Notes under the pieces: model-generated | Told to the model about the DNA's origin: nothing | Seen by the model: the letters and a program-made list of their open reading frames with translations, nothing else | Database searches by the model: none | Source of the DNA: a virus | Strand: one strand, 5' to 3' | DNA length: 64,000 bases | Virus record (IMG/VR): IMGVR_UViG_3300025006_000320 | Program-made: the position numbers and the translations under genes | In this document: positions 26,419 to 28,035 of the stretch, piece after piece | Position numbering within the stretch: the first letter of the stretch is position 1 | Layout: the number at the start of each line of letters is the position of its first letter

Positions 26419-28035
26419 GTGGCTATTTTTGGCAGCGGGATAATGTTCCGTCAGGGTAAGTTCGTCTTCCTGATCCAGCGCTCGGATGATGGTACGTGGT
26501 GCCCGCCTGGCGGTACGGTAGAGCCGGGCGAGCTGGCTATTGATGCCGCGCGCCGCGAGTTGCTGGAAGAGGTGGGCTATCAGTACGATGGCCCGCTGAC
26601 CCCGCACAGCGTATACGGCGATTATCTGACGTTTCGCGCCGAGGTGCCGGAGAGGTTCGAGGCGAAGCTTAACGACGAATCGCTGGCCGCAGGATGGTTT
26701 CACATCGACGATCTGCCCAAGCCGCTTCATCAGCCATTCGCTGAGATGCTGGCGCAGCAGGCGCTCAATGAAACCGAGGTGGCCGCGCTCATCGCTGACG
26801 GGACGCTAAGCAGCCCGCAATTCTTTATCAACATGTGGATGTTCGCCATCAGGGTAACCGGAACGGGGGTTACCTGGCGCTCTGCAGATCAGGAGATGAC
26901 ATTCCGTAACCCGGACGATTATCTCACCCCCGAATTTCTCCAGAGGGTAGCCGGTGTACCACTTATCTGGCTTCACCCCAAAAAAAGAACACTTGATAGC
27001 GACGAGTTCGCAAAGCGCGTTATTGGCACCCTGACAAATGCTTGGGTAGCCGATAAGGGCGAAGTGTGGGCTGTTGCGCGCGTGTACGACGCCGAAGCTG
27101 CTGAAATTATGGCAACAAGGCAATTAAGCACCTCGCCAACTGTGAAGTTCTCAGAGGTAGCTCAATCAATCAATGTCGACGGTCAGCCTCTACTGGTGGA
27201 GCCATCCCCCGAGCTGCTCGACCACGTTGCAATTTGTGAACAGGGCGTATGGGACAAGCTCCTTGCCCCTACTGGTGTTAAATCTGATTCCATTCCAAAC
27301 GAGGCTGAAAAGATGGACGAGGAAAAAATCGTAGCGCTAATCAATAAGGCGATTGACGCACGCATGGCTAAGGCTGACTCAGAAGCAGCAGACCTGAAAG
27401 CCAAGGCCGATGCCGAAGAAGCAGCCAAGAAAGAAAAGGCTGATGCTGAGGCAAAAGAGGCCGAAGAGGCGAAAGCCAAAGCTGACGCGGAAGAGAAAGC
27501 CGCGAAAGAAAAAGCAGACGCCGAAGCCAAAGAGAAGGCCGACGCGGAAGAGGCAGAATGTATGGCGAAAGAAAAAGCTGACTCTCAGCTGCGCCAGGAG
27601 ATCGCCGACCTGCGCTCCCGCATCCCAACCGAGTTGAGTGATGAAGAGCGTAACGAAGTCGCCGACGCACAGGTGAAGGCTGATAGCGTGTTCTCCTGCT
27701 TCGGCAAGCGCGCGCCGGTTCCGCTGTCTGGTGAAAAGCCGCTGGCATATCGCCGCCGCCTGATGATCCAGCTGCAGGAGCATTCGCCTGACTTCAAAAC
27801 CGTCGACTTGTCCTCCATTGCTGACTCAGCCCTGCTGAGCGTGGCCGAGAAGACGATCTACGCCGACGCGCAGAAATCGGCAAGCCTGTCTGTTGGCCCT
27901 GGCATGCTGCGCGAAATTAAACGCGCTGATGCGACCGGTCGCCAGATCAGCACCTTCGAAGGCGATCCTGCTGCCACCTGGGCTCCGTTCCAGTCCGGCA
28001 AGCGTCAGGTCACCAGTTTCAACAACCAGGCTTAA
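26419..28035 (+). CDS. Nudix hydrolase fused to DUF2213 head maturation/scaffold protein
   Basis: Full Nudix box [23 protein letters not shown] at aa 32-54; DUF2213-like core ([20 protein letters not shown]); KAD/EEA repeat scaffold tail. Confidence 0.85.

Follow-up and report, generated by a model that had tools for sequence, protein, structure and literature searches.

We describe herein a gene from a 64,000-nucleotide (nt) stretch of viral DNA (IMG/VR record IMGVR_UViG_3300025006_000320; the whole stretch is called the window) that joins three parts in a single open reading frame (ORF): a Nudix hydrolase domain, a DUF2213 core with the predicted fold of a prohead protease, and a scaffold tail. 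The explanation that we favor, with a probability of about 0.6, is that the DNA derives from a Felixviridae-like temperate myophage and that the gene (positions 26419-28035) encodes a three-part head-assembly polyprotein, the Nudix part of which is loaded into the procapsid as cargo for the next host. Loading into the procapsid is plausible, and the most economical reading, because the Nudix domain is joined to an assembly protein of the head interior. This reading is backed by a portal-fused Nudix domain in Bcep1-like phages, by a PBECR1 ribonuclease (RNase) that occupies the same slot in a homologue, and by the recovery of another DUF2213 protein, gp24 of Pseudomonas phage Pa193, from virions.

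A previous study (Iyer, Burroughs, Anantharaman and Aravind 2022, Viruses 14:1977, PMC9503650) reported Nudix domains fused to MuF, portal and capsid-processing serine peptidase proteins, and predicted that they are packaged and injected. The architecture and the hypothesis are the same as here, and that prediction was purely computational. The DUF2213+NUDIX architecture was also noted from Pfam (PMC8770471). The fusion and its interpretation are thus already known from the literature (2022) and from databases, and the suggestion in a preliminary description of this DNA that the system was undescribed does not stand. What is new here is the fold-level assignment of DUF2213 to the proteases, the M/V signature of a nested start, the replacement of Nudix by PBECR1 on a 73%-identical core, and the link to Pa193.

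Results

A Nudix domain at the N-terminus of a single open frame

The gene, its ribosome-binding site and the features of its Nudix part are as follows.

26419-28035, plus strand: whole gene, 538 amino acids (aa); Nudix, prohead protease (DUF2213) and scaffold (ORF list, translation)
26405-26409, plus strand: Shine-Dalgarno sequence AGGAG, read from the sequence, 9 nt 5' of the GTG
26419-26754, plus strand: Nudix hydrolase domain, aa 1-112 (Pfam PF00293 over residues 9-112)
26512-26580, plus strand: Nudix box, aa 32-54 (G32, E38, R46, E47, E50, E51, G53), an exact fit to GX5EX7REUXEEXGU
26677-26679, plus strand: Glu87, a downstream acidic residue in the motif LNDE(H/S), present in 97 of 98 homologues

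The 538 codons run without interruption from a GTG start codon; the upstream, MuF-like gene has its stop codon 13 nt before this GTG, and the AGGAG overlaps that stop codon. As the GTG is served by this AGGAG, the Nudix domain opens at the very N-terminus. The gene of Klebsiella phages RothC, RothD and Chronis is 88% identical to positions 26419-28035 at the nucleotide level, and cultured, independently sequenced phages hold the same gene at 537-543 aa. More than 2000 near-identical proteins are found in prophages of Enterobacter, Escherichia, Klebsiella, Citrobacter and Salmonella, where those that are named mostly appear in databases as 'NUDIX hydrolase' or 'NUDIX domain-containing protein'. 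With one open frame that recurs in independent cultured phages, the fusion of a Nudix domain to a head protein is genuine, as had been supposed. Over its full length the protein matches phrog_6216 (function unknown; E 2.9e-244) in the PHROG database, and the PHROGs annotated as 'head maturation protease' (530, 2229 and 3778) match residues 160-414. An AlphaFold2 model of the whole protein has a mean predicted local distance difference test score (pLDDT) of 88.6 and a predicted template modeling score (pTM) of 0.71.

Residues 9-112 match the Pfam NUDIX family with an E value of 8.9e-17 (61.8 bits; cut-off, 21.1), and the exact Nudix box read earlier at residues 32-54 is confirmed. When the model was used in a Foldseek search, the top 50 matches in the PDB were all Nudix enzymes (probability 1.00); pLDDT is 89-98 across residues 1-120, and the model has the alpha/beta/alpha fold of this superfamily. 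Conservation was followed in 98 homologues, each drawn from another 50%-identity cluster and 27-63% identical to the domain of the window. The box is nearly invariant among them (G32 in 97, E38 in 95, and R46, E47, E50 and E51 in 96 each). E87 is the sole fully invariant column of the Nudix-domain alignment (A3), and W93 and H104 are likewise conserved. Judging from this conservation, Glu87 is probably a metal ligand or the catalytic base. The ratio of nonsynonymous to synonymous substitution rates (dN/dS) in the Nudix part is 0.075 against Chronis and 0.043 against Yersinia phage 29.18, and is equally low in the rest of the protein. The near-invariant box and a dN/dS of 0.04-0.08 argue for an active enzyme; residues 1-112 look like a minimal, catalytically competent Nudix hydrolase of the MutT-like kind, in which the metal-binding and catalytic box is complete.

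The substrate is less easily approached. The best scores against the NCBIfam equivalogs MutT, RppH, NudB, NudI, NudE, NudC and NadM were 20-27 bits, with cut-offs of 95-259 bits; since no curated Nudix equivalog was matched, neither a subfamily nor a substrate can be assigned from the sequence. The best solved relatives of the family profile are NudG, MutT, RenU, NudI, Ap4A/Ap6A hydrolases and Dcp2, and the structural neighbors of the domain are an equally mixed set of enzyme types. Iyer et al. (PMC9503650) assigned these domains to a T4 NudE-like clade directed at ADP-ribose and NAD, whereas the link to T4 NudE is weak here and the best solved relatives are of the MutT, NudG, NudI and Ap4A-hydrolase types. 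Alignment to T4 NudE with hhalign gave a probability of 98.3%, but the aligned part is limited to 62 columns surrounding the generic box; an N-terminal motif, AAGI(L/I)F, is common to both. T4 was absent among the tblastn matches. Among proteins of about 67-213 aa, a search of limited sensitivity found no free-standing close relative of the Nudix clade, just truncated copies of the fusion.

The domain also varies in size. In seven homologues (P0159, P0171, P0194, P0234, P0241, P0263 and P0267), the Nudix domain is interrupted directly behind the box by a conserved insertion of about 50-110 residues. The insert of P0234 is still larger and shows a relationship to the P0205 N-terminal region.

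The DUF2213 core has the fold of prohead proteases

The core and its candidate catalytic residues lie at the following positions.

26770-27273, plus strand: prohead-protease-fold domain (DUF2213 / PF09979), aa 118-285 (Pfam, fold search)
26974-26979, plus strand: His186-Pro187, candidate catalytic His (H186 invariant in 149 sequences; His85-Pro86 of T4 gp21 comparably placed)
27127-27138, plus strand: Ser237-Thr-Ser239-Pro240, candidate catalytic Ser (invariant in 149 sequences; 51-53 residues past H186)
27220-27225, plus strand: Asp268-His269, candidate third catalytic residue (of 149 sequences, 145 keep D268 and 147 keep H269)

The DUF2213-like core noted earlier in this ORF is upheld by a PF09979 match above the gathering score: residues 159-276 reach 26.4 bits with the whole protein and 29.1 bits with the core alone (cut-off, 22), and 109 of 113 aligned homologues match the same family. 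A core-only AlphaFold2 model was obtained with a pLDDT of 94.3 and a pTM of 0.88. The Foldseek list for this model is headed by T4 gp21, followed mostly by herpesvirus maturational proteases. On realignment, T4 gp21 (5jbl_A) gave a Z score of 11.3 and a root-mean-square deviation of 2.7 Å over 130 of 165 residues. The proteases of varicella-zoster virus (VZV), pseudorabies virus (PRV), Kaposi's sarcoma-associated herpesvirus (KSHV), herpes simplex virus (HSV), Epstein-Barr virus (EBV) and human cytomegalovirus (HCMV) gave Z scores of 6-8.2, and unrelated MCE domains scored at most 6. Because T4 gp21 and the herpesvirus proteases outscore the unrelated MCE domains, the modeled DUF2213 core is assigned the prohead-protease (assemblin / T4 gp21) fold, with protease activity as a prediction.

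Residues invariant, or nearly so, across 149 sequences include H186 (followed by P187), S237-T-S239-P240, E261, D268-H269 and G276-V-W-D-K280. T4 gp21 (MEROPS S77; PDB 5JBL), which shares the fold with the herpesvirus assemblins, also has a His-Pro pair with a Ser motif about 50-55 residues later; from its His85 to its Ser140 the distance is 55 residues. A His/Ser active site would fit the spacing of H186 and S237/S239, a catalytic assignment that we infer from conservation and spacing rather than from superposition of individual residues. T4 gp21 differs in that its sequence similarity to the core is undetectable and in that it carries no fused cargo.

Sequence methods did not recover this relationship. 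No match to Peptidase_S77, S78, S80 or Mu-like_Pro was found by Pfam in 113 members, even at E values up to 1. When the core was aligned by hhalign, neither Mu gpI (probability 0.1%) nor T4 gp21 (0.9%) was significant, and phmmer and profile searches against PDB sequences produced chance matches only for the DUF2213 core. The look-alikes proposed by a protein-atlas language model (YonD_N, Mu-like_Pro, S77, S78 and S80; 0.86-0.94, the protease families at 0.86-0.87) are taken as leads only.

A scaffold tail with a putative nested start

The C-terminal part of the gene holds the following features.

27640-27981, plus strand: conserved C-terminal scaffold domain, aa 408-521 (pLDDT 84-98)
27313-28035, plus strand: putative nested in-frame scaffold gene, Met299 to the end, 240 aa (conserved M/V; start of BcepB1A gp25)
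27301-27304, plus strand: internal Shine-Dalgarno-like GAGG, 8 nt 5' of the Met299 codon

The scaffold tail anticipated in the preliminary description is present: past a low-confidence linker (residues 286-300), a coiled-coil part follows, with long helices at 301-338 and 366-401 in the model, then a conserved C-terminal domain at 408-521. Invariant or near-invariant residues of this domain are Q418, D422, G438, E439, Y444, R447, S456, D483, G507 and G515. It is probably the part that binds the capsid and, by position only, may correspond to the helix-turn-helix (residues 286-326) of Pa193 gp24.

Among 89 homologues, 81 have M and 6 have V at position 299, a pattern consistent with internal ATG and GTG starts. 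Met299 aligns exactly with the annotated start of gp25, the 'scaffold protein' of phage BcepB1A, and a GGAG or AGGA is similarly spaced before the internal start in BcepB1A and in locus L006. Because of the M/V conservation, the GAGG and the alignment to the gp25 start, the gene most likely has two products, the full-length Nudix-protease-scaffold protein and a more abundant scaffold of 240 aa, both predicted from sequence features. Nested protease/scaffold pairs of this kind resemble lambda C/Nu3, Mu I/Z and BcepB1A gp26/gp25.

BcepB1A offers a parallel in layout. Its gp26 ('head maturation protease, COG3566') likewise consists of Nudix (Pfam E 5.6e-17), DUF2213 (E 1.6e-35) and scaffold parts, with gp25 nested within it as proposed here, and the synteny is the same (portal-like, MuF-like, Nudix-protease and capsid genes). 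However, BcepB1A is distant, a virulent Burkholderia phage of which tblastn aligned the Nudix region only (38.8% identity), and its protein has about 45 extra residues before the Nudix domain.

The only DUF2213 member with experimental data is Pa193 gp24 (PF09979, now named Pa193_gp24; PDB 9B40), the gene for which likewise precedes the decoration and capsid genes. It was found in mature virions by mass spectrometry coupled to liquid chromatography (LC-MS), and its residues 286-326 form a helix-turn-helix pentamer beneath the five-fold vertices (PMC11456595). In contrast to the protein of the window, gp24 has no Nudix domain, has been interpreted as a scaffold only and not as a protease, and is too divergent for a direct sequence match.

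Variation at the N-terminal slot

An exhaustive search with residues 120-538 returned 1990 homologous cluster representatives. Among the best 148 of these (50%-identity clusters), 97 have a Nudix domain directly before the core, 46 have nothing there and 5 have another domain, with the share of Nudix biased upward, as the best matches to the query come from a Nudix-bearing lineage. The layout is common.

The core tree is shallow and its resolution poor; on it, 36 changes of the Nudix state were counted, compared with 42-46 in the first five of 200 label shuffles; the nearest neighbor of half the Nudix-less proteins is a Nudix-bearing protein. The changes on the tree and the Nudix-bearing neighbors suggest that the module was gained, lost or swapped many times. 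One homologue, P0218 (L003:6001-8019), has a PBECR1 RNase (Pfam E 9.5e-10) in the Nudix slot within the same synteny, and in the protease core it shares 73% identity with the Nudix-bearing P0186. PBECR1 was described from packaged polyvalent and MuF proteins (PMC5512222). In these sequences the N-terminus of the protease behaves as a swappable cargo slot, taken by Nudix, a PBECR1 RNase or unknown domains.

The non-Nudix N-terminal extensions of P0164, P0172, P0199 and P0218 share a motif of approximately D-A-E-F-x-E-(S/A)-D-H-P-R-x-x-D-G-x-F, which occurs twice in P0164. The remainder of these extensions, which are 170-250 aa long, has no match in Pfam. The shared motif may be a targeting or processing signal. 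The sequence N-E-L that lies at the Nudix-protease junction also closes other N-terminal extensions at the junction with the protease. It is speculation only that the invariant Glu118 of the Nudix-protease junction (M/L-D/N-E-L, cut between E and L) could be a gp21-like cleavage site after Glu.

Enzymatic passengers occur elsewhere in related head modules. Phages Bcep1, Bcep43, Bcep781 and BcepNY3 (phrog_15528) carry a Nudix domain of the same subfamily (43% identity over 124 residues; motifs AAGI, LNDEH..W and LP.PLH) in a related module of Phage_portal_3, MuF-like and DUF2213 proteins. The difference is that Nudix forms the C-terminus of the portal, and that their DUF2213 protein (gp15, 463 aa) has none. 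In another related head module, again with a DUF2213 protein that lacks Nudix, an ADP-ribosyltransferase exoenzyme domain (E 1.6e-11) forms the end of the upstream head protein of 829 aa (L013:3-2492). The MuF position at that locus (L013:2676-4175) is taken by a 499-aa protein with a weak GH5 cellulase-like match. The MuF, portal and polyvalent effectors (Iyer et al. 2017, PMC5512222), PBECR1 included, are similarly enzymatic passengers on head proteins that were predicted to be packaged and injected, except that the carrier here is a protease-scaffold, not a MuF or portal protein. That paper mentions NUDIX once and does not name DUF2213.

Genome setting and neighboring genes

The window represents a phage genome of about 46.3 kb that is either circular and wrapped or terminally redundant. 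Positions 1-17687 are repeated at 46314-64000, so that each ORF in the first 17.7 kb appears again 46,313 bases further on. The head module is ordered as small and large terminase, portal, MuF-like, Nudix-protease-scaffold, a 286-aa protein with an immunoglobulin (Ig)-like match, major capsid and tail genes, of which the following were assigned.

24164-25585, plus strand: portal protein, Phage_portal_3 (Pfam PF06381, E 5e-20; phrog_146)
25582-26406, plus strand: MuF-like head morphogenesis protein (phrog_324 'head morphogenesis', E 4.7e-26)
28928-29959, plus strand: major capsid protein (phrog_6671, E 9e-183; phrog_264 'major head protein'; weak Pfam Major_capside match)

The gene at 28051-28911 (phrog_6268, function unknown) has an Ig-like stretch at residues ~153-239. 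Because this stretch matches tail-fiber and virion-structural PHROGs, the product is probably a capsid decoration protein; the position of the gene is that of the decoration protein gene of Pa193.

The KlebPhaCol preprint (10.1101/2024.12.02.626457) placed Klebsiella phages in a proposed family Felixviridae and used as a polymerase chain reaction (PCR) marker gp7 of RothC, a 'putative virion structural protein', without any mention of Nudix. The 'Felixviridae gp7' primers map to 26443-26463 (from Met9) and 28012-28032 (the end of the gene), the forward primer having one mismatch to the window from 26443. From this match, the marker gene of the proposed family is the Nudix-protease-scaffold gene. 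In Yersinia phage vB_YenM_29.18 and four relatives (L002:6001-7632), the ortholog is labeled 'glycosyl transferase' in five GenBank records, a label without sequence support.

Discussion

On the reading that we favor, the scaffold C-terminus would bind the inner face of the coat shell, so the procapsid would receive a protease and a Nudix domain with each full-length copy. The Nudix domain would stay inside the head, either cleaved off or still joined to a protease fragment. It would then enter the next host together with the DNA, where it would hydrolyze a nucleoside-diphosphate-X compound as soon as infection begins. Candidate substrates are signals derived from ADP-ribose or NAD, alarmones, dinucleoside polyphosphates, modified (d)NTPs and RNA 5' ends. 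Protease activity, virion retention, ejection and the substrate are steps that we infer. What ties the enzyme physically to the head interior is its covalent fusion with the protease-scaffold, together with the paralogous fusion at the C-terminus of the portal.

Several points weigh against delivery by this route. In many phages, HK97, lambda and T4 among them, protease and scaffold fragments exit the capsid on maturation. The junction between Nudix and protease in the model is short (pLDDT 95-96), with no exposed linker that would hint at a cleavage site. Sequence profiles tie DUF2213 to neither S77, S78 nor the Mu-like proteases. The resolved part of gp24 in Pa193 was limited to scaffold residues 286-326, and the authors were unable to say whether the rest of gp24 persists (PMC11456595). 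A search of the literature for virion proteomics, biochemistry or genetics of Nudix-bearing homologues found nothing relevant; a preprint of 2026 that deals with the stringent response and portal proteins is not concerned with Nudix. Finally, the frequency of the fusion is overstated by the bias of the sample, and even there 46 of the 148 close relatives are without Nudix; the domain is thus dispensable for assembly, which fits an accessory role without thereby showing delivery.

The same facts can be read as a role confined to the producing cell. The Nudix enzyme would act late, at or inside the assembling procapsid, for example in removing nucleotide by-products, or nucleotides that are damaged or modified, close to where packaging takes place, and would be lost with the protease and scaffold fragments at maturation. 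We consider this unlikely, though by no means negligible. It agrees with the location of the gene, a late head gene between the MuF-like and capsid genes, with the common departure of such fragments from maturing capsids, and with the lack of an evident linker or cleavage site between Nudix and protease in the model. The nearest solved relatives of the profile also fit, being nucleoside triphosphate (NTP) pyrophosphohydrolases of the MutT/NudG/NudI type and not ADP-ribose pyrophosphatases. However, a freely diffusing late enzyme needs no tether to a capsid-interior protein, and the same Nudix subfamily is found on the C-terminus of the portal, a permanent component of the virion. Moreover, the slot alternatively holds a PBECR1 RNase, typical of packaged polyvalent or MuF effectors, and the DUF2213 protein persists in Pa193 virions (PMC11456595).

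An improbable variant is that the fusion merely couples expression, such that the Nudix chemistry is cytoplasmic and precedes assembly (e.g., lowering an immune or stress nucleotide late in infection), with the head localization being incidental. Many phage Nudix proteins are indeed free-standing (PMC9503650), and the domain is often gained and lost. Against this, no close free-standing relative turned up among the ~67-213-aa proteins in the search of limited sensitivity, and the partners that recur in the fusions of this clade are specifically proteins of the head interior (at the portal, its C-terminus; at the protease, its N-terminus). That Nudix is a non-catalytic module, acting as a nucleotide-binding sensor, a protease-regulating pro-domain or a structural plug, seems very improbable: Nudix-fold sensors such as the NrtR-type regulators exist (cited in PMC9503650) and the junction to the protease is tight, but the metal-binding and catalytic box residues plus E87 are kept in 95-97 of the 98 divergent homologues, and the protease does not need Nudix, as one third of the close relatives lack the domain. 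An artifact (a frameshift, a misassembly or the reading of two neighboring genes as a single one) is refuted by the open frame with its proper ribosome-binding site, by the independently sequenced cultured phages and by the more than 2000 database proteins.

In T4, internal proteins and Alt are targeted by a capsid-targeting sequence that is separate and N-terminal. If packaging of the Nudix domain is accepted, a broader and rather doubtful extension is that the N-terminus of DUF2213 proteases is a general cargo-loading position, a third route beside the MuF/portal fusions and the T4 capsid-targeting sequence. The ejected Nudix enzyme might then destroy an immune signal or alarmone, or decap or dephosphorylate RNA 5' ends, before phage expression begins. 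The pyrophosphate signals meant here are ADP-ribose-derived ones of the Thoeris type, (p)ppGpp/(p)ppApp and Ap4A.

If the enzyme does travel in the capsid, its action would precede the transcription of every phage gene, and this is the only period in which a phage could pre-empt nucleotide-based immune signaling. Felixviridae-like temperate myophages are very common in gut Enterobacteriaceae and cultured members exist. Thus, the published prediction is directly testable in this group of phages.

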